Part shown: in pieces, positions 25,210-36,442 of the stretch | Position numbering within the stretch: the stretch's first letter is position 1 | Layout: each line of letters begins with the position of its first letter | NCBI RefSeq assembly: GCF_024298765.1 | Contig: NZ_CP101210.1 | Strand: one strand, 5' to 3' | DNA: 64,000 nt | Origin: Escherichia coli | Lineage (GTDB): Bacteria > Pseudomonadota > Gammaproteobacteria > Enterobacterales > Enterobacteriaceae | Made by a program: the position numbers and the translations under genes | Notes under the pieces: model-generated | Databases searched by the model: none | What the model was told of the DNA's origin: nothing | The model's input: the letters and a program-made list of their open reading frames with translations, nothing else

Positions 25210-27681
25210 TTAAGAATCAGCCTGACTCGGGATCAGTTTTTGCCAGATAACTGAAACGTATTTTGCCTGGTAACGGGCGTCATCAAGTGCATTATGGCGC
25301 TCACCTTCGAATGGAATAGCCGTTCTGGCATCGAAGTCTATGGCTTTCCCCAGCTCAACGATTGTGCGTACATCGCGATCGTTGTAGTAACGCCACGGGC
25401 AGGGGATCCCCTGCCGTTCGTATGAACGGCGCAAAATCGTGTTGTCGAAGTTGGCTCCATTTCCCCAAACCTGAACAAAAAATTCACTGGAGTTTTCGTC
25501 GATAAATTCCCGCAATTGTAACAGTGCATCATCTAACGGGATTTCATCGGTCATAATGGCAGATTGCGCTTCGCGTGATTGCTTAAGCCACCATTTAATG
25601 GTGTCCCGATCAATGACTCCGCCAGCAGTTTCCAGATCGATAGTCTTACTAAATTCCGGTCCCATATCTCCGGTTTGCGGATCGAAAAATATTGCACCTA
25701 TTGAGATGATCGGGGCATCAGGATTTTTTCCCATGGTTTCAAGGTCGATCATTAGATGGTCACACGTCCTGCTGGTGGATGTGATTTCGTGATGACCGTT
25801 CACCTTAATTGAGTGATCTGCCGTCTCGCCAGTTTCATTATCGCTATTGTGATGCTGATTGCCGCCAGTGTTCTCCTTGTGTGGATGTTCAGCGCCTTCC
25901 ATTTCCTCCGGATCATCTTCCTGAACTTCAACCTGATACTCTTCATCGAATGTTTCTTGGTATGTTGCGTCGCCCATCACCGCGCCACAATCAGGGCAGT
26001 TGCCGCCGCCGGTCTGACCGCAGGCGGTGCAGACTTTTTCCACTTCCTGTTGCGCCACTGGTTCAGGCTGTTTCGTTTCTGGCTCGTTTTGTAACGCATT
26101 TGTGCTGTTTTGTTCCGCTTTTTGGTAGTTCCGTTCCGATTCATGCTGGTTCTGGTTCACAGAATCGCGGGTCTGGATCCCCTTAACCCATTTCGGATCA
26201 TTCGGGTCACTAATCCCTTCAACAAATTCACCACGTGATGCAGCAAGCAACTTATCGGCGTCAGGCTGGCTGATATTGGCTGCCTGCATAATTTTGTTTA
26301 CTTCGTCAGCGGTAACTTTTATCGGCTCTGGTTGTTCTGAATCTTCAGCGGTATCTACATTTTGCGGTAAGCCCGTGTATGTGCCATTTTTTCGGGCAAA
26401 ATATTCTTCTTTTGTGATTTCAGTGGCGCCAGCAGCCAGTGCCTTATCCAGACCAGAAAGTTTGTTTGCGCGACCGTATTTTTCTCCGTCCTTATCTGCG
26501 AAGAGGAAATAGAACGGCCCCTCACGCTCTACAGATGGTTCAGCTTCCGGCGCGGTTTCATTTTTTGGGATATCAGATACCTCAGTTTCCACTGCATCAG
26601 TTTGTGTTTCTGATGACTGGAGAACATCAACAGTGCCCAGGTCTGTTTCTTCATTCTCAAACACGCCCTTTGTCGTCAGGTATTCGCAGATATATTTGTT
26701 CAGTGCTATGGGATCTTTGTGAATGTCGATCGGACGCTCACGGACAAGGCCAAAAATAGTCTGGCGGTCGTAGCGAAGGGCATCAGGCTGTTTGCGCATT
26801 GATGCCGAGATACGCTTCCAGTCTTCGCGGTCGTTGTCGATAACTTCTTTTTTTGCCCAGCGATGGATGCTGCCGTCAATGTTTCCGGCATCCACATCAC
26901 CAGGCCAGAGAGCGTAGGCCAGTTCGTCATCCAGTGTTTTCCATGTCTGCTTGTATTCGCGATGAATGGCAGCAATGACCGGGCTGATTTTTCCTGTTGA
27001 ATTTTCAGTGTACTGTTGATTGGCTCTGGCGCGGGCGAGATCAACAACAGACGTGTATTTTCCGGTTTCCTTGCGTTCACCTTCGCGACGTTTTTTCCAG
27101 ATGCGCATCTCTGCCTGAATTTCGGGCCATTTAGCACCAGGAATACATTTATGCTTAACCCACCCAATGGCGTGCAACTTAAGCTCCGGATACATGGCGT
27201 TAACTTCTGGCATTTTCATCAACGCTTCAACGATATGTCCGTCGAATGTTGCCATGTCTTCCTGCAACAATTCCTGTGCGCTAATAACCATATCAACGGT
27301 GATGTTTTCACATGTGTCGAACTTAACCATGACAGCGTTCTGTACTTCAGGGGCCAGCTTGTCAAAAGTGACGTTCATCGGATCGGATTCAGTCTCAACC
27401 GGGACAAAAGAAGCAGACTCCTCATCCCAGCGGTTTTCCTGCATATATTCAGCATCCCATGAATCGAGGGCAGGGCGGGGTATGCCAGGTTTATCCTCGC
27501 AGACAATAAATTTATAAGCGCAGTCCTGAGCAGCCGGATAATGTTCCAGGAACTGCCAGTGAAATTTTGCTCGAGCACGGCGTTCGTCGCCAGCTTCAAT
27601 GGCTGTGGCTACAGCCACAGCGCCTTCTTCCCTTGTTGCCAGTTCGTCAGGAATAGCGGCGCAAATAAAGACTTTACTCAT
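25210..27681 (-). CDS. Large prophage exonuclease-like protein (823 aa) with central zinc ribbon and C-terminal DnaQ-like 3'-5' exonuclease domain
   Basis: C-terminal motifs DLETMG, WGNGANFDNTIL and HNALDDARY fit the DEDDh exonuclease pattern; CTACGQTGGGNCPDCG zinc ribbon mid-protein; occupies the position of the decayed ydfE in K-12 Qin. Confidence 0.7.
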   Translation of the reverse strand: MSKVFICAAIPDELATREEGAVAVATAIEAGDERRARAKFHWQFLEHYPAAQDCAYKFIVCEDKPGIPRPALDSWDAEYMQENRWDEESASFVPVETESDPMNVTFDKLAPEVQNAVMVKFDTCENITVDMVISAQELLQEDMATFDGHIVEALMKMPEVNAMYPELKLHAIGWVKHKCIPGAKWPEIQAEMRIWKKRREGERKETGKYTSVVDLARARANQQYTENSTGKISPVIAAIHREYKQTWKTLDDELAYALWPGDVDAGNIDGSIHRWAKKEVIDNDREDWKRISASMRKQPDALRYDRQTIFGLVRERPIDIHKDPIALNKYICEYLTTKGVFENEETDLGTVDVLQSSETQTDAVETEVSDIPKNETAPEAEPSVEREGPFYFLFADKDGEKYGRANKLSGLDKALAAGATEITKEEYFARKNGTYTGLPQNVDTAEDSEQPEPIKVTADEVNKIMQAANISQPDADKLLAASRGEFVEGISDPNDPKWVKGIQTRDSVNQNQHESERNYQKAEQNSTNALQNEPETKQPEPVAQQEVEKVCTACGQTGGGNCPDCGAVMGDATYQETFDEEYQVEVQEDDPEEMEGAEHPHKENTGGNQHHNSDNETGETADHSIKVNGHHEITSTSRTCDHLMIDLETMGKNPDAPIISIGAIFFDPQTGDMGPEFSKTIDLETAGGVIDRDTIKWWLKQSREAQSAIMTDEIPLDDALLQLREFIDENSSEFFVQVWGNGANFDNTILRRSYERQGIPCPWRYYNDRDVRTIVELGKAIDFDARTAIPFEGERHNALDDARYQAKYVSVIWQKLIPSQADS

Positions 27682-29352: not shown

Positions 29353-29466
29353 GCTGACCTCATTTCCCCTTAACGCCGGGGTCGCGGAACTGTTTGCTGA
29401 GAACACCGTGCGGTGTCTTGATGGAAAGTAATTTAGAATAACCTAACATGAGAGGCAAGTGTTTTT

Positions 29467-29484
29467 TGTTAGATTGATCTAACA
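29467..29484. promoter_or_regulatory. Operator-like palindrome TGTTAGA-n4-TCTAACA downstream of dicA
   Basis: Perfect inverted repeat TGTTAGATTGATCTAACA; same half-sites as the palindrome in the dicA-dicC intergenic region. Confidence 0.45.
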
Positions 29485-29520
29485 AAAAGAGTGGGCGCAA
29501 CTAATCACTTGAAAAGAATG

Positions 29521-29928
29521 TTATTTTATTGATTTATTTTTACGCGCTTTAAGCATTTCTTCGAAGAGTTTGTTGAAGTTTTCTACTCTTGCGCGCATTT
29601 CAGACAGCAAGGCTTCCTGCTCGGAAGATGGAAGAGCATCGAATAATTCGATCAATTCTTTGTGGTTGGGAGTTAGCTCTGTTTCCACATGAAGTTCTTG
29701 TGCAGGCACTGGTGCCTTGTCTTCGTCACCAAACATTAGCCATGTAGGTGAGCACTTCAGAGCATCCGCTAAAGCAAACAATCGTTTTCCGACTGGCTGG
29801 GTTTCGTCTCTTTCCCATTGTGAAATTGTGACGTGAGCAACTCCAGCGAGGCGCGCAGCTTCTCGTTGTGTTAAGCGTAATTCTTTTCGTCGCGCCAGAA
29901 CTCGCTGGCCTAGGGTTCTTGTATCCAT
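29521..29928 (-). CDS. dicA: Prophage repressor DicA (HTH_XRE, 135 aa)
   Basis: HTH RLAGVAHVTISQWER and C-terminal ...EMRARVENFNKLFEEMLKARK match recalled DicA; divergent from dicC. Confidence 0.9.
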   Translation of the reverse strand: MDTRTLGQRVLARRKELRLTQREAARLAGVAHVTISQWERDETQPVGKRLFALADALKCSPTWLMFGDEDKAPVPAQELHVETELTPNHKELIELFDALPSSEQEALLSEMRARVENFNKLFEEMLKARKNKSIK

Positions 29929-29950
29929 AGTTAGGTAATTCTAATTTTTC

Positions 29951-29995
29951 TTGACTTAGGTATCCCGCGCACAATAATGTTAGAAAAGTCTAACA
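29951..29995 (+). promoter_or_regulatory. Putative dicC promoter with overlapping operator palindrome
   Basis: TTGACT, a 17-bp spacer, then ATAATG; the perfect palindrome TGTTAGAAAAGTCTAACA at 29978-29995 overlaps the -10 element. Confidence 0.5.
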
Positions 29996-30005
29996 AGAGG
30001 GGGCT

Positions 30006-30236
30006 TTGATGCTTAAAGTTGACGCAATTACTTTTTTTGGCAGCAAAACAAAGCTTGCCAATGCCGCAGGAGTGAGACTGGCAAGTGTTGCTGCTTGGGG
30101 GATACTGGTTCCTGAAGGTCGCGCGATGCGTCTACAGGAGGCATCTGGCGGGGAGCTTCAGTATGATCCCAAAGTTTATGACGAATATCGTAAGACGAAG
30201 CGGGCGGGGCGGTTGAACAATGAAAATCACTCCTGA
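30006..30236 (+). CDS. dicC: Cro-like regulator DicC (76 aa)
   Basis: ...GRAMRLQEASGGELQYDPKVYDEYRKTKRA matches recalled DicC; divergent from dicA. Confidence 0.85.
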   Translation: MMLKVDAITFFGSKTKLANAAGVRLASVAAWGILVPEGRAMRLQEASGGELQYDPKVYDEYRKTKRAGRLNNENHS

Positions 30237-30741
30237 ACAGGCTCGTGAGGCTCTGGATGCCTGGATATGTCGACCAGGAATGACACAGGAGCAGGCGACG
30301 ATATTAATCACTGAAGCATTCTGGGCTTTGAAAGAGCGCCCGAACATCGATGTTCAGCGTGTCACATATGAAGGTGGCGCGGTTGATCAGCGAGCGCTTA
30401 GCGTTAATCGAGTGAAGATATTCGAACGCTGGAAGGCTATCGACACCAGGGATAAGCGTGAAAAGTTCACAGCGCTAGTGCCTGCAATTATGGAGGCTAT
30501 CCGGATTAGTGATTTCAGGTTGTATCGTGAGATCAGTGATGGAAAAAGTATTACGTACATGATCGCCGGGTTAAATAAAGAATATGGCGATGTGGTGGAA
30601 TCCGGACTGCTTTTTGCAGATCCTGCCGTTGTAGATCGTGAAACTGACGAACTTATAGAAAAAGCAATTGCTTTCAAGCTTGCGTATCGACAGCAATACC
30701 AACAAAAAGCTGGATGGAATTATGAGTCTTCTTTTTGCTGA
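30220..30741 (+). CDS. Hypothetical early-region protein (173 aa)
   Basis: ORF overlapping the dicC 3' end and coupled to the replication gene; no family recognised. Confidence 0.5.
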   Translation: MKITPEQAREALDAWICRPGMTQEQATILITEAFWALKERPNIDVQRVTYEGGAVDQRALSVNRVKIFERWKAIDTRDKREKFTALVPAIMEAIRISDFRLYREISDGKSITYMIAGLNKEYGDVVESGLLFADPAVVDRETDELIEKAIAFKLAYRQQYQQKAGWNYESSFC

Positions 30742-31687
30742 ACGCCCACTGGTTATAAACACGCAGCTGGCAATGAAAATCGGCTTAAACGAAGCCATTG
30801 TTTTGCAACAACTGCACTACTGGTTGAGAGATACCAACTCCGGTATGGAATGTGATGGTGTTCGCTGGATTTATAACACAACGGAACAATGGCTGGAACA
30901 GTTCCCATTCTGGTCAGAGTCAACGTTAAAGCGCGCGTTTGCAAGTCTGAAAACGCTGGGGCTTTTGCGTTGTGAAAAGCTCAATAAATCAAAGCGCGAT
31001 ATGACCAATTTCTACACGATCAACTATGGGAGCGAGCTTTTAGATGGTGGCAAATTGAACGAATCCATCGGTTCAAAATGCGCCGCTCCATCAGGTCAAA
31101 ATGACACGATGGAAGAGGTCAAAATGAAACGCTCCATTGGTTCAAAACGACCCAATGTCATCGGGTCAAAATGGCCTGATGATCTTACAGAGAATACAAC
31201 AGAGATTACTACAGAGAATAAAAACACTTTTCGTCCGGAAGCTTCGCAACCGGACCCGCAGACGACTGAACAGGATTTTTTAACCCGGAACCCCGACGCG
31301 GTTGTGTTTAGTGTGAAAAAACGCCAGTGGGGTAGCAGGGAGGATCTGGCGTGTGCGCAGTGGATTTGGGGGCGGATCGTGAACCTTTACGAACAGGCTG
31401 CCAGCGACGATGGAGAGATCATGCGACCAAAAGAGCCTAACTGGACAGCCTGGGCCAATGACGTGCGCACAATGCGGATGCTGGATGGCAGAAGCCACAG
31501 ACAAATTTGCGAAATGTTTGGTCGGGTACAGCGGGATCCATTCTGGGTAAAAAACATCATGAGCCCGTCAAAACTCCGCGAAAAATGGGACGAACTGGTC
31601 ATCCGCCTGGGACGTTCACCTGTACAGCGTTGTGTGAATCATATTTCTGAACCGGATACAGAAATTCCGCCTGGTTTCAGGGGATAA
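30722..31687 (+). CDS. Putative phage replication initiation protein (321 aa)
   Basis: ATG at 30722 overlaps the upstream stop; N-terminal region (LKRAFASLKTLGLLRCEK) resembles phage replication-initiator winged-helix domains; assigned mainly by position. Confidence 0.55.
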   Translation: MSLLFAERPLVINTQLAMKIGLNEAIVLQQLHYWLRDTNSGMECDGVRWIYNTTEQWLEQFPFWSESTLKRAFASLKTLGLLRCEKLNKSKRDMTNFYTINYGSELLDGGKLNESIGSKCAAPSGQNDTMEEVKMKRSIGSKRPNVIGSKWPDDLTENTTEITTENKNTFRPEASQPDPQTTEQDFLTRNPDAVVFSVKKRQWGSREDLACAQWIWGRIVNLYEQAASDDGEIMRPKEPNWTAWANDVRTMRMLDGRSHRQICEMFGRVQRDPFWVKNIMSPSKLREKWDELVIRLGRSPVQRCVNHISEPDTEIPPGFRG

Positions 31688-31727
31688 GTGTTGATTTCAG
31701 GTCATGAGATAATTTTAAGGGGGACTT

Positions 31728-32129
31728 GTGGCAAAAGTTTTTACACAAGAAGAGCGGGAAAAAATTAAAGGGCAGGTTGTTGAACTCGTACGCCGGAGTG
31801 GGCGTGAGACGTTACGGCAACTGGAAGTCAAGACAGGTGCGACAAGATATCTGATGAGCGTTCTCGCAAGAGAGCTGGTTGCCAGCGGCGATGTATACAA
31901 CTCTGGTTACGGGTTATTCCCGTCTGAACAGGCGCGTAAGGACTGGCAAAATGCCCGTAAAAAGCTCTCAAGGGCAAAGCTGAAGAAACCATCTGCGGTT
32001 GATCCGGACCTTATCTGGTCATTACCTGACGGAGAAATACGTCGCTACGACAGGCGTCAGAACATAATCTGCCGCGAGTGCCGGAAGAGTGAAGTTATGC
32101 AGCGCATACTGGCATTTTATCAGGGATAA
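31728..32129 (+). CDS. Hypothetical basic protein (133 aa), GTG start
   Basis: GTG preceded by AAGGGGGA RBS; C-terminal CxxC; no family recognised. Confidence 0.45.
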   Translation: MAKVFTQEEREKIKGQVVELVRRSGRETLRQLEVKTGATRYLMSVLARELVASGDVYNSGYGLFPSEQARKDWQNARKKLSRAKLKKPSAVDPDLIWSLPDGEIRRYDRRQNIICRECRKSEVMQRILAFYQG

Positions 32130-32662
32130 TGTTAGATATTTTAGACGTTACTAGATTAAAAAGCATTAGTTCAGGAGTGAATTGACATTCTCATTTTTCA
32201 TGGCACAGGGTAGATCTGGCGTGGTTGTCCGCTTTGTGCCAACAGCGGACGTTACTAACGAAACTGTGAGTTAAAAACGGGAGCTGGTCACCTCCATCCC
32301 GCGAAATGGAATTCAAAAATGCCCTCATGTACGGTACTTCTAGTCTGATGTGAGCATTTTCGTGGATTTTTTCGAGCCACTCCAACGAATGATTACATTC
32401 AGTTTCGGGCACTAAAACGTCATAAATCCGCAAGTTGAGGAGTAGCGATCAGCCAATTGGTTAAAAAACAGCTTTAATTCCCTTTTTCAAGCAGGCTCCT
32501 TGTCGCACGTCTGGTGCATCCAATTCATTTCAGTTACCCTGATGCCATACTGGCACGGACTAGCTCTCTTAATTGGCGCTGGTTTGTTAACCTTGTCCGC
32601 TGTCGGGTCTTTGTAAGTTGTAATTCCTAAACTAGCATAATTTTATTATAAGGCCTCTTACT

Positions 32663-33688
32663 ATGCACATTTTATCTGTTTCAAAAAAGGAAGTTGGAAG
32701 AGCTGGGGATAGATTAGTTTCTCAGTTTGGTACAGGTGAAAAATATAAAGAGGAAGATGTACAAATTCTTCATGAGTGGAGGATGTTGCATTTATATCCT
32801 TTAAGTAAAATACAATTTTATATGGAAAGAGAGGCTATTTCCTTAAACAAAAATGCGTTACTATCCTCTAGAATTAAGAGGATGCCTTCCATTGTTACTA
32901 AGCTTTCTAGATTTCCTGATATGAAGTTAAATAAGATGCAGGATCTTGGTGGGTGCCGGGCTATTTTAAATAATCTGGATCAAGTGTATGATTTAGTTAA
33001 TAAAATAAAATCATCTAAATTCTCACATGAACTAGTTAGAATGGATGATTACATGATAGACGTGAAAGATTCTGGTTATAGAAGCTTTCATATGGTCTAT
33101 TCATTCCAAAATAAAAAATTTCCATCTTTAAATGGGTTGCGCATTGAAATGCAAATAAGAACAGCTATTCAACATAGCTGGGCTACAGCAGTTGAAATGG
33201 TTGGTTTGTTTCGAAAGGAATCATTGAAATCTGGTTTTGGTGATGCAAGATGGCTTAGGTTTTTTGAATTGGTATCAGAGCTTTTTTATAAACTTGAGTA
33301 TGAAAAAGAACCATCTGGGAGTTATATAAAAATATCAGAAGAATTAAGTTATTTATCCGTCGAGTTGAATGTTTTCGATATATTAGCTGCTTACAATGCC
33401 GTAGTTAGCCATATTGAGGGTAGCAAAAAATATGATAAAGGACTTTGCATAATTGTTGTTGATACCATAAAGCGGAATATAAATATAAAGAGCTTCGAAA
33501 ATCACAATCATGCGAAGGCGGCAGAAGCTTATGTCGAGTCTGAAAAATACTGCGCGGAAAATAAAGGCTGTGAAGTGGCTATGGTTTCTGTTAGTTCAAT
33601 TAGTGAATTAAAAAATGCATATCCTGCTTACTTTTTAGATACGAAAACTTTTTTAAATTATCTCAGTAGGTATGTTTTTATAAAATAA
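32663..33688 (+). CDS. RelA/SpoT-homologue synthetase-domain protein (341 aa); candidate fused toxSAS toxin-antitoxin
   Basis: All four synthetase motifs present: RIKRMPSIVTK (RxKxxxSxxxK), DLGGCR (DxxGxR), GYRSFH, EMQIRTAIQHSWA (ExQIRT...W). About 130-aa C-terminal extension, no adjacent partner ORF, and much lower GC than the flanks. Confidence 0.75.
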   Translation: MHILSVSKKEVGRAGDRLVSQFGTGEKYKEEDVQILHEWRMLHLYPLSKIQFYMEREAISLNKNALLSSRIKRMPSIVTKLSRFPDMKLNKMQDLGGCRAILNNLDQVYDLVNKIKSSKFSHELVRMDDYMIDVKDSGYRSFHMVYSFQNKKFPSLNGLRIEMQIRTAIQHSWATAVEMVGLFRKESLKSGFGDARWLRFFELVSELFYKLEYEKEPSGSYIKISEELSYLSVELNVFDILAAYNAVVSHIEGSKKYDKGLCIIVVDTIKRNINIKSFENHNHAKAAEAYVESEKYCAENKGCEVAMVSVSSISELKNAYPAYFLDTKTFLNYLSRYVFIK

Positions 33689-34121
33689 AAAATGTTATCT
33701 GGAGTGGTCTGAATTCTACTAACTTAGTTTTTTCAGACCGCTTCTGACCACAATGGCCTGTGAGGTTCTGCTGCTAGTCAACATAAAATAACAAAGCCGG
33801 CAGGTGGTGGTTGTTGTAAAGTTATTCAATGACATTCATGGAGGCTTAAGCGAATTATTTGTCCCTGGTCGGTATGGTGGCAACAGCTTGTTGCGAGAAT
33901 TTGGCTAATTTGGACTGACTTCCGCTCCTTGCTCAAAGCGGACTAGAAGGTTAGCTTGTGTCGGACTTTGCGTATTAAAAGAAGTGCTGGTGGTGACTAG
34001 TGGTTGAGCCCCATTTCCACAGAAAAAATCAGAGAAACTATACCCAATAGTTGTATTGAATCACTGACGAGACAGCCTCATATTCATCAGGACTGGTGTA
34101 CGTCCAATACAGGAGGTTGTG

Positions 34122-35112: not shown

Positions 35113-35391
35113 ATGGCACGCAACGTAAAATATTACAATTCTGATAATTCGCCCGTTCTTGCCTGCACGCACGGGCGGTATTCTCACGCATTCAAGTCTG
35201 AATGGTTCCAGCACCCTCCATGCACTGCAGAACAGGCCGAATGGCTGATTCATTCTTACTGCAGGCGCGGGTTCGAGGTTAAGAAAGCTCTCAGTCTCGA
35301 CTATCGGCACTGGATAATCTCTGTCAGGCTGCCTTATTCCGAACGCCCACCACGTGCGTCCCGCACTTTCCAGCAACGGATCTGGAGGTAA
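35113..35391 (+). CDS. Hypothetical 92-aa protein
   Basis: GGAG RBS; its stop TAA sits immediately before the GTG start of ydfU, suggesting coupling. Confidence 0.35.
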   Translation: MARNVKYYNSDNSPVLACTHGRYSHAFKSEWFQHPPCTAEQAEWLIHSYCRRGFEVKKALSLDYRHWIISVRLPYSERPPRASRTFQQRIWR

Positions 35392-35392
35392 C

Positions 35393-36442
35393 GTGCGGGT
35401 ATTACTTAGACCTGTTCTGGTGCCTGAGCTTGGGCTGGTGGTCCTTAAGCCGGGCCGTGAATCCATACAGATATTTCATAATCCTCGAGTGCTGGTGGAA
35501 CCGGAACCAAAAAGCATGCGTAATCTGCCATCCGGAGTCGTTCCTGCCGTTCGCCAGCCGCTGGCGGAAGACAAAACATTGCTGCCGTTTTTTAGTAACG
35601 AACGGGTGATTCGTGCTGCTGGCGGCGTTGGCGCATTGTCTGACTGGCTATTACGTCATATTACATCCTGCCAGTGGCCTAATGGCGATTACCATCACAC
35701 TGAAACAGTCATTCACCGTTATGGTACCGGCGCAATGGTGTTGTGCTGGCACTGCGACAACCAACTGCGTGACCAGACATCGGAATCACTGGAGCTGCTT
35801 GCTCAACAAAATCTGACAGCATGGGTGATTGACGTCATCCGTCACGCAATAAGCGGTACGCAGGAGCGGGAATTATCTTTGGCTGAATTATCCTGGTGGG
35901 CGGTCTGCAATCAGGTGGTGGATGCACTACCTGAGGCTGTATCGCGTCGTTCGCTGGGATTACCAGCGGAAAAAATCTGCTCGGTGTACCGCGAAAGCGA
36001 CATCGTACCGGGAGAGCAGACCGCCACCAGCATATTGAAACAACGCACAAAAAATCTTGCACCGTTGCCTTACGCCCACCAGCAACAAAAACCACCACAG
36101 GAAAAGACGGTGGTAAGCATCAACGTTGATCCAGAGTCTCCGGAATCTTTCATGAAGCTGCCTAAACGTCGCCGCTGGGTTAAGGAGAAATACACTCGTT
36201 GGGTTAAGACACAGCCGTGTGCTTGCTGCGGTATGCCAGCCGACGATCCGCATCATCTGATTGGTCACGGGCAGGGCGGAATGGGAACAAAAGCACATGA
36301 TCTCTTTGTGTTGCCTTTGTGCAGAAAGCATCACAACGAGCTGCATACGGATACAGTGGCATTTGAAGAGAAGTATGGCTCCCAACTGGAGCTGATATTT
36401 CGTTTTATCGATCGCGCGCTGGCAACTGGCGTACTGGCGTAA
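35393..36442 (+). CDS. ydfU: DUF968-type prophage protein (349 aa), GTG start
   Basis: GGAGG RBS before GTG at 35393; C-terminal CACCGMPADDPHH...CRKHHNELH Cys/His cluster; position upstream of quuQ. Confidence 0.72.
   Translation: MRVLLRPVLVPELGLVVLKPGRESIQIFHNPRVLVEPEPKSMRNLPSGVVPAVRQPLAEDKTLLPFFSNERVIRAAGGVGALSDWLLRHITSCQWPNGDYHHTETVIHRYGTGAMVLCWHCDNQLRDQTSESLELLAQQNLTAWVIDVIRHAISGTQERELSLAELSWWAVCNQVVDALPEAVSRRSLGLPAEKICSVYRESDIVPGEQTATSILKQRTKNLAPLPYAHQQQKPPQEKTVVSINVDPESPESFMKLPKRRRWVKEKYTRWVKTQPCACCGMPADDPHHLIGHGQGGMGTKAHDLFVLPLCRKHHNELHTDTVAFEEKYGSQLELIFRFIDRALATGVLA

Follow-up and report, generated by a model that had tools for sequence, protein, structure and literature searches.

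Replication of the Qin/Rac-like lambdoid prophage analysed here, in a 64,000-nucleotide stretch of Escherichia coli DNA (contig NZ_CP101210.1 of RefSeq assembly GCF_024298765.1; hereafter the window), is specified by a single phage gene, an arrangement known as an 'O-only' module. The product of this gene, a replication initiator of 321 amino acids (aa), carries a candidate lambda-style origin within its own coding sequence and ends in a short tail nearly identical to the C-terminus of the host primosomal protein DnaT. Among related initiators, the type of tail tracks the type of helicase loader encoded alongside. On this basis, there is somewhat better than an even chance that an O-only initiator with a DnaT-type tail borrows the DnaB-DnaC loading route of the host.

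A first-pass annotation of the window had described three coupled genes of 173, 321 and 133 aa after dicC (positions 30220-32129) as a replication module, with an initiator-like middle gene and no recognizable helicase loader or helicase. Open reading frame (ORF) analysis and RefSeq annotation agree on three same-strand ORFs of these sizes and positions, and they are taken as real genes because each has strong family matches. The reading of the middle gene as an initiator is borne out by its O-like family match, by a C-terminal domain homologous to that of lambda O and by iterons inside the gene. The iterons and the DnaT-like tail had both been overlooked. The suggestion that host factors might serve in replication gains a concrete clue from this tail. 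The view of all three genes as one replication module does not stand: only the middle gene concerns replication.

The initiator, its candidate origin and its DnaT-type tail

The initiator gene and the features within it are as follows:

30722..31687, plus strand: O-type replication initiator, 321 aa, ATG start (PHROG 391, 2.1e-92)
30722..31051, plus strand: N-terminal winged-helix domain, presumed to bind the origin, aa 1-110 (confident in the structure model)
31052..31234, plus strand: disordered inter-domain linker, aa 111-171 (predicted local distance difference test score, pLDDT, 36-45)
31060..31181, plus strand: candidate origin iterons, five direct repeats with core GKTCAAAAYG (repeat search)
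31181..31240, plus strand: A/T-rich patch adjoining the iterons, candidate unwinding region (65% A+T vs 47-55% in the remaining gene)
31259..31612, plus strand: helical C-terminal domain, aa 180-297, lambda O C-domain homologue by alignment (pLDDT 87-98)
31622..31684, plus strand: DnaT-type tail, aa 301-321, VQRCVNHISEPDTEIPPGFRG (phmmer, NCBIfam DnaT, hhalign)
31664-31684, plus strand: tail core IPPGFRG, aa 315-321, within the DnaT-type tail

PHROG 391 is annotated as 'replication initiation O-like', and the two halves of the protein separately match several other initiator and 'DnaD-like' PHROGs. An alternative TTG start at 30668 would extend the product to 339 aa. No Pfam domain is matched at E<0.1, including the N-terminal Phage_rep_O domain (PF04492) that is detected in lambda O (6e-36) and Gifsy-1 O (1.5e-30). 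In a structure model produced by AlphaFold2 (AF2) from a 45-sequence alignment (mean pLDDT 77.6), the fold of the N-terminal domain is closest to those of plasmid RepA and DnaD-like initiators (DnaD/RepA_N winged helix). Residues 170-294 align with residues 158-270 of lambda O at 37% identity (tblastn 2e-17; BLASTP 5e-24), and the C-terminal domain is by this alignment homologous to the C-terminal domain of lambda O.

A predicted lambda-style origin lies inside the gene at 31060-31240. Its five iterons start at 31071, 31094, 31117, 31140 and 31164, with a spacing of 23/23/23/24 bp, and each has partial dyad symmetry. The core GKTCAAAAYG occurs six times in the 64 kb of the window against 0.97 expected, with five of the six at 31060-31181, and none of 100 shuffles reached six occurrences. 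The coding DNA of the disordered linker contains the iterons and the A/T-rich patch, an arrangement also seen in lambda, whose origin is laid out as iterons followed by an A/T-rich region inside O. Three copies of a peptide repeat, (S)IGSK, are imposed on the linker (aa 111-171) by the iterons, such that DNA function constrains protein sequence. Relatives in the IMG/VR collection with a near-identical C-domain and a different N-domain have other repeats at the same place, and Gifsy-1 O has yet others, a pattern that fits co-specificity of N-domain and iterons. Between IMG/VR loci L031-L084 and L005-L030, lambda-O-type C-domains with tail (88-92% identity) are joined to two unrelated N-domains: GGTCAAAATG iterons go with the MSLLFAERPLV type and TGACCCGT repeats with the MSSKLHGLVWEG / HTH_36 type, a module swap with a matching change of repeat.

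The last residues of the initiator (VNHISEPDTEIPPGFRG; as a longer peptide, RCVNHISEPDTEIPPGFRG) are nearly identical to the last ~17-20 residues of host DnaT. In phmmer searches the tail aligns end to end with the C-terminus of the DnaT chains 2ru8_A, 6aep_A and 9zbt_D, the only PDB sequence matches that fall on it, and the NCBIfam DnaT model matches at model positions 160-179 of 179. When the C-domain family profile was compared with DnaT by hhalign, only the last 20 columns aligned; the C-domain is therefore not a detectable DnaT domain, and wider DnaT homology of this domain was considered and rejected. The DnaT three-helix DNA-binding domain (PF17948) likewise has no Pfam match in the initiator. 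The tail (aa 302-321) is disordered in the AF2 monomer model, with pLDDT of 46-59. In DnaT itself, the tail is absent from cryo-electron microscopy (cryo-EM) models, for which residues 84-153 were used as the C-terminal domain.

Conservation is concentrated in the last seven residues. Across 105 full-length DnaT orthologues (70-100% identity), I-P-x-G-F-R-G hardly varies at, or immediately beside, the C-terminus. Relatives of the initiator down to ~42% identity keep these seven residues, as IPPGFRG, IPAGFRG, IPEGFRG, IPKGFRG or IPSGFRG, and the residues preceding them diverge freely. A tblastn search of a phage collection with the tail gave 46 matches, all in replication-initiator genes bar a few bacterial dnaT genes in mis-filed records. 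At least six unrelated initiator bodies bear the tail:

the window type
Phage_rep_O proteins of Gifsy-1, Gifsy-2 and SPN3UB
the 75/02 Stx / Tritos type
the Klebsiella ST11-OXA245phi3.2 type
the LLS type
SPN1S and PAT1, in which the tail accompanies an entire DnaT DNA-binding domain

In LLS, a phage of K-12 that has been described as O-only, the O protein terminates in DTKIPEGFRG. Rac-SA53 ydaU (L085 1664-2734) and the SPN1S replication protein (L088 1748-2563) each contain the PF17948 DNA-binding domain of DnaT in full (~1e-18). SPN1S combines it with a DnaT tail and has no loader; in YdaU it is combined with a tail of lambda type, and the next gene is labelled ydaV. The DnaT domain and the tail appear to be shuffled as two separate units.

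Helicase loaders beside tail-bearing initiators

The profile searches proposed in the first-pass annotation for P-loop, DnaC and primosomal families have been carried out, and its failure to recognize a helicase loader or helicase is upheld both by these searches and by the annotation of the prophage. Across Pfam, NCBIfam, PHROGs and PADLOC, none of the three ORFs has a P-loop, DnaC/IstB, DnaB, lambda-P or DnaT-domain match, and the DnaT model matches the tail only. Pfam, NCBIfam and PHROGs also give no AAA+ domain with Walker A (PF01695) and no DnaB_C or RecA-type domain in these ORFs. No cognate loader P (PF06992) lies directly downstream of the initiator, the next gene being DUF977, and the annotation of RefSeq copies shows no DnaB, DnaC or P-like gene in any part of the prophage. 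Of 80 IMG/VR loci with the window-type C-domain, 79 retain the C-terminus; at no locus is the initiator followed directly by a Walker-A ORF. Two complete phage genomes in the databases, PhiR42_1 and mEp460_ev081, have the same order cI-cro-cII-O-DUF977, and Tritos has it with a different initiator body. Given that the arrangement recurs in deposited phage genomes, the absence of a loader does not reflect decay.

Within the family of lambda-O-type C-domains, the tail switches together with the loader. Lambda itself and the relatives P0137, P0140, P0266 and P0213 (36-69% identity in the C-domain) have a W-rich acidic lambda-type tail, and Phage_lambda_P lies directly downstream in all five. Of family members with an IPxGFRG tail, P0130 is followed by a DnaC/IstB gene, and P0238 and the window initiator have no loader.

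A wider census was made by a pattern scan of IMG/VR, limited to tails with Ile encoded by ATT and a TAA stop, and hence sampling a subset. It gave 109 ORFs of at least 200 aa ending in IPxGFRG, in six body clusters, 93 of them with at least 1 kb of downstream sequence. A DnaC homologue starts within a few bases of the stop codon at 24 of these 93 informative loci, and the other 69 have no homologue of DnaC, lambda P or DnaB within 3.5 kb; for 60 of the 69, no Walker-A ORF is present within 4 kb on either side. Lambda P or DnaB was found beside an IPxGFRG-tail ORF at none of the 93 loci. Named tail-bearers show the same two arrangements: PhiR42_1, mEp460, Tritos, SPN1S, ST11-OXA245phi3.2, PAT1 and LLS have no loader, and 75/02 Stx, Gifsy-1, Gifsy-2, SPN3UB, 683R6 and Rac 442/2 have a DnaC homologue alongside. 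The host genes dnaT and dnaC are themselves neighbours, with dnaT 3 nt upstream. As a separate observation, in P0271 (425 aa) and P0325 (409 aa) a DnaT domain (PF17948) and a DnaC IstB/AAA+ domain are joined in one ORF. These ORFs arose either from natural read-through that fused DnaT to DnaC or from sequencing errors across the 3 nt between dnaT and dnaC; genuine fusions would provide Rosetta-stone support for a DnaT-DnaC contact.

Neighbouring genes and prophage context

The window comprises the immunity and early-right region of the prophage. Around the initiator, the following features were identified:

29521..29928, minus strand: CI/DicA-like repressor, 135 aa, divergent from the early rightward operon (Pfam HTH_3, 1.5e-14)
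29951..29978, plus strand: predicted PR-like sigma-70 promoter, TTGACT-16-AATAAT, 5' of cro/dicC (consensus match at 10/12 positions)
30006..30236, plus strand: Cro/DicC, 76 aa (Pfam P22_Cro, 5e-12; 'DicC' or 'Cro/CI family' in RefSeq)
30220..30741, plus strand: YdaT-family CII-like regulator, 173 aa (Pfam, PHROG)
31728..32129, plus strand: DUF977/LygF, 133 aa, GTG start (Pfam DUF977, 3.8e-29; PHROG 142)

The stretch 29500-32700 matches the chromosomes of numerous E. coli isolates, avian and human, at 100% identity, and 4629 of 5426 complete genomes contain parts of it. In RefSeq records of identical DNA, integrase, excisionase, exonuclease, ydfD and dicB lie on the left flank, followed by the repressor, Cro/DicC, a 'toxin YdaT family protein', the initiator gene (labelled 'hypothetical protein' or 'phage replication protein O') and a 'DUF977 family protein'. 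Beyond these are a RelA/SpoT-domain protein, hokD, rem, ydfU, the antiterminator ydfT, lysis genes and lambda-like head and tail genes. The product of 29521..29928 is labelled as a helix-turn-helix protein or repressor in identical genomes and phages, and the element at 29951-29978 is the sole promoter-like match within 29400-32800. Of the three genes described as coupled, the start of the 173-aa gene overlaps the stop of cro/dicC by 17 nt and that of the 321-aa gene overlaps the 173-aa gene by 20 nt; the 133-aa gene is close to the initiator gene without overlap, 40 nt downstream of its stop, with a strong AAGGGGG Shine-Dalgarno sequence.

Neither flanking gene is a replication factor: the 173-aa one is a CII-like regulator, and the 133-aa one is an accessory gene in the position of lambda ren. 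The 173-aa product, encoded directly after cro, matches Pfam YdaT_toxin (PF06254) at 27.6 bits (cut-off 21) and PHROG 163 ('CII-like transcriptional activator') at 8.7e-41. In such prophages, YdaT is described as functionally equivalent to lambda CII (PMC9986795). By these family matches, the protein belongs to the lysis-lysogeny switch rather than to replication. It has no sequence match among solved structures, solved YdaT included. The operator described for YdaT of CP-933P, TTGATTN6AATCAA, is not enriched in the window, and no operator of the CP-933P type was found there; the match places the protein in the YdaT family, and its DNA specificity would lie outside what such a match tells.

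The 133-aa product matches Pfam DUF977 (PF06163) over its full length (residues 1-133, 101.9 bits) and PHROG 142 ('Ren-like exclusion protein') at 6.5e-45; the family is named LygF in phage records. As first described, it is basic (pI 10.0; 28 K+R vs 17 D+E) with a C-terminal CxxC formed by its only two cysteines, C115 and C118. Its resemblance to lambda Ren is confined to the last 20 aa, where residues 112-131 are 55% identical to Ren 73-92, and does not amount to full-length homology. The CxxC is not common to Ren, in which the first Cys aligns with Phe. No useful match was obtained among solved structures. DUF977 follows the initiator in 72 of the 80 related IMG/VR loci. It is also found downstream of modules consisting of an initiator and a DnaC-like gene in Shigella phage 75/02 Stx, vB_EcoS-683R6, Rac 442/2 and a metagenomic relative, and in Rac-SA53 after ydaU and the gene labelled ydaV, where the DnaC identity is that of the label only. 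Since it accompanies modules that already have DnaC-like loaders, DUF977 is not a loader substitute. A role as a zinc or loader protein was considered and rejected on these grounds, together with the presence of only two cysteines, the first of which is not conserved in Ren.

Several other features of the window were observed. A 341-aa RelA/SpoT-domain protein (32663-33688, plus strand) matches Pfam PF04607 (4e-18) and the PADLOC candidate defence family PDC-S33 (5e-119). Its gene lies in a low-GC island at ~32200-34000, a 36-40% GC insertion between DUF977 and hokD, and looks like a defence moron. Between DUF977 and this gene is an 80-aa antisense ORF (32191-32433, minus strand), which has no PADLOC match, is absent from RefSeq annotation and is probably not a gene. 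The 823-aa 'exonuclease' of the leftward operon (25210-27681, minus strand) has an Rv2179c-like 3'-5' exonuclease domain (2e-67) at aa 642-813 only, preceded by a long acidic N-terminal stretch of 640 residues with no family match. YdfU (35354-36442, plus strand), encoded just upstream of the Q-type antiterminator ydfT, matches DUF968 (1e-76) and, weakly, HNH nucleases.

Helicase recruitment and relation to known systems

If the initiator borrows the host loading route, it would oligomerize on the iterons and open the A/T-rich region, with the tail serving as a short docking motif at the step where lambda O would hand over to its own loader P. The tail would connect the initiator to the host route fed by DnaT, namely the DnaB6-DnaC6 complex, through a contact that may be direct, via DnaC or DnaB, or may involve another DnaT partner (PriA, PriB or PriC). 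In phages with the same tail plus a DnaC homologue, that phage-encoded copy would serve as loader. A broader proposal, that IPxGFRG-COOH is a portable short linear motif by which enterobacterial DnaT and many temperate-phage initiators dock on the DnaB-DnaC complex, is put forward tentatively, as possible yet short of probable. If true, O-only phages would replicate by molecular mimicry of the DnaT tail, and the same contact would be the long-sought link from the PriA-PriB-DnaT preprimosome to DnaB/DnaC. The extreme C-termini of O-type proteins, W-rich where P is present and IPxGFRG where DnaC is, would then represent exchangeable 'loader address tags'.

Two open questions meet in this locus. 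One is the replication of about 1 in 9 lambdoid phages: 34 of 314 are O-only, and replication of this type is described as 'not yet understood' (PMC12315714). The other is the handover from restart proteins to DnaB/DnaC, given that recruitment by the PriA-PriB-DnaT preprimosome is explicitly left open (PMC13377028, PMC11087952). A motif of 7-20 residues that is common to DnaT and loader-less initiators, and that switches with loader type, yields one peptide-level hypothesis for both. The existence of the O-only class (unexplained), the automatic 'primosomal protein I' labels and the DnaT C-terminal motif in DopC are already known. No literature was found that treats the IPxGFRG tail as portable or describes its switch with loader type. 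The analysis also corrects annotation: initiators are variously labelled 'hypothetical', 'replication protein O' and 'primosomal protein I', and YdaT and DUF977 are not to be read as replication genes.

Several points weigh against the borrowing of the host route through the tail. The link from the tail to the DnaB-DnaC complex is one that we infer from sequence, and the origin function of 31060-31240 is likewise read from its anatomy. When E. coli DnaC was joined to initiator residues 172-321 through a (GGGGS)x6 linker and modelled by AF2 as a single chain with a block-style alignment, tail pLDDT moved from 46/59/47 to 51/62/60, and no confident docking on monomeric DnaC resulted; for DnaC in its hexameric complex with DnaB, the model counts neither for nor against. 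A review links DnaT residues beyond 161 to trimerization, such that the tail could serve self-association (PMC5778457). The census is redundant and dominated by enterobacterial prophages (Enterobacteriaceae only), and its loci are not phylogenetically independent. Finally, Rac-SA53 YdaU has a tail of lambda type, not DnaT type, and is followed by the gene labelled ydaV, annotated as a 153-aa 'putative replication protein'; if ydaV is a DnaC homologue, the tail would not be obligatory for DnaC-type modules.

The tail may instead be a self-association or regulatory element, acting in protomer oligomerization, autoinhibition or as a degradation signal, and common to DnaT since both proteins oligomerize on DNA; the helicase would then be delivered through another surface, such as the lambda-O-like C-domain in direct contact with host DnaB or DnaC, or by transcription- or recombination-driven restart. 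Such a role is unlikely, though far from negligible. DnaT 1-161 forms dimers and no trimers, which implicates the C-terminal tail in trimerization (PMC5778457), the fusion model gave no confident docking on DnaC, and growth of LLS is enhanced by RecBCD-promoted recombination (PMC12315714). However, the tail is borne by at least six unrelated bodies that lack a DnaT three-helix domain for it to pack against, it stays disordered in the monomer model, and a generic oligomerization or degron role does not predict the clean switch of tail with loader type inside one C-domain family. It is also conceivable, if fairly improbable, that the tail recruits PriA-PriB (or PriC), making the initiator an origin-tethered mimic of DnaT, after which the PriA-dependent primosome would load DnaB through DnaC. 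The only known partners of DnaT are PriA, PriB, PriC and single-stranded DNA, DnaC has never been shown to bind DnaT, and this route would also fit an association with DnaC-type and never P-type loaders. Cryo-EM, however, shows PriA contacted by the three-helix C-domain of DnaT and PriB by its linker; the initiator has neither (no PF17948 match, and hhalign aligns the tail only), and the tail is absent from the modelled complexes.

Less probable than either, and very unlikely overall, is that the module is defective, its loader gene having been deleted from a cryptic prophage, or that one of the small neighbouring genes, DUF977 foremost, encodes an unrecognized non-P-loop loader or adaptor analogous to lambda P. 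Prophages of the Qin/Rac type are often cryptic, and the DUF977 protein, which is basic and has no assigned function, follows the initiator in most related loci. Nevertheless, the same gene order is present in the complete phage genomes PhiR42_1, mEp460_ev081 and Tritos, and O-only modules are present in 34/314 lambdoid phages (PMC12315714). DUF977 is in turn missing from the O-only modules of LLS and SPN1S and present downstream of complete modules of initiator plus DnaC. Use of the host DnaB-DnaC route through the tail remains the preferred reading of the module.

That of lambda is among the closest known systems. As in lambda, the initiator gene is positioned in the PR operon after a cII analogue, the candidate origin lies in the linker-coding part and the C-domains are homologous (37% identity). 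In contrast to lambda O, the window initiator has an N-domain that is not Phage_rep_O but DnaD/RepA_N-like by fold, no P gene follows it, and its DnaT-type tail replaces the W-rich acidic tail of lambda O (LDLTNTDWIYGVDL). Iteron plasmid initiators offer a functional parallel: pSC101 RepA, R6K pi and RK2 TrfA recruit host DnaB-DnaC without a loader of their own. Like these and the staphylococcal RepA_N initiators, the window initiator would act alone with host helicase and loader, though the protein families differ, and we know of no iteron-plasmid or staphylococcal RepA_N initiator with a DnaT-type tail. The O-only modules of lambdoid phages similarly consist of a single O homologue without helicase or loader (Zheng, Casjens, Davidson, Amundsen and Smith 2025; PMC12315714). 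LLS O, which also ends in IPEGFRG, differs from the window initiator in its body, and the tail is unmentioned in that paper.

The remaining comparisons concern DnaT and its derivatives. E. coli DnaT (primosomal protein i) shares with the initiator its last ~17-20 residues, with the core IPxGFRG-COOH near-invariant in both, but the initiator has neither PF17948 nor the DnaT N-terminal domain. It would be targeted by sequence, through the iterons, whereas DnaT is targeted by PriA and PriB. Initiators of the YdaU or 'primosomal protein I' type (Rac YdaU, SPN1S) and the domesticated O-like protein DopC, in which the DnaT C-terminal motif was already recognized (Brezellec et al. 2017; PMC5509034), are also phage or phage-derived proteins with DnaT-derived C-terminal parts. 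Rac-SA53 YdaU has the DnaT domain without the DnaT tail, and the SPN1S replication protein, loader-less like the window module, has the full DnaT domain and the tail. YdaU, SPN1S and DopC all contain PF17948, whereas the window initiator carries the tail alone, grafted on a lambda-O-type C-domain.

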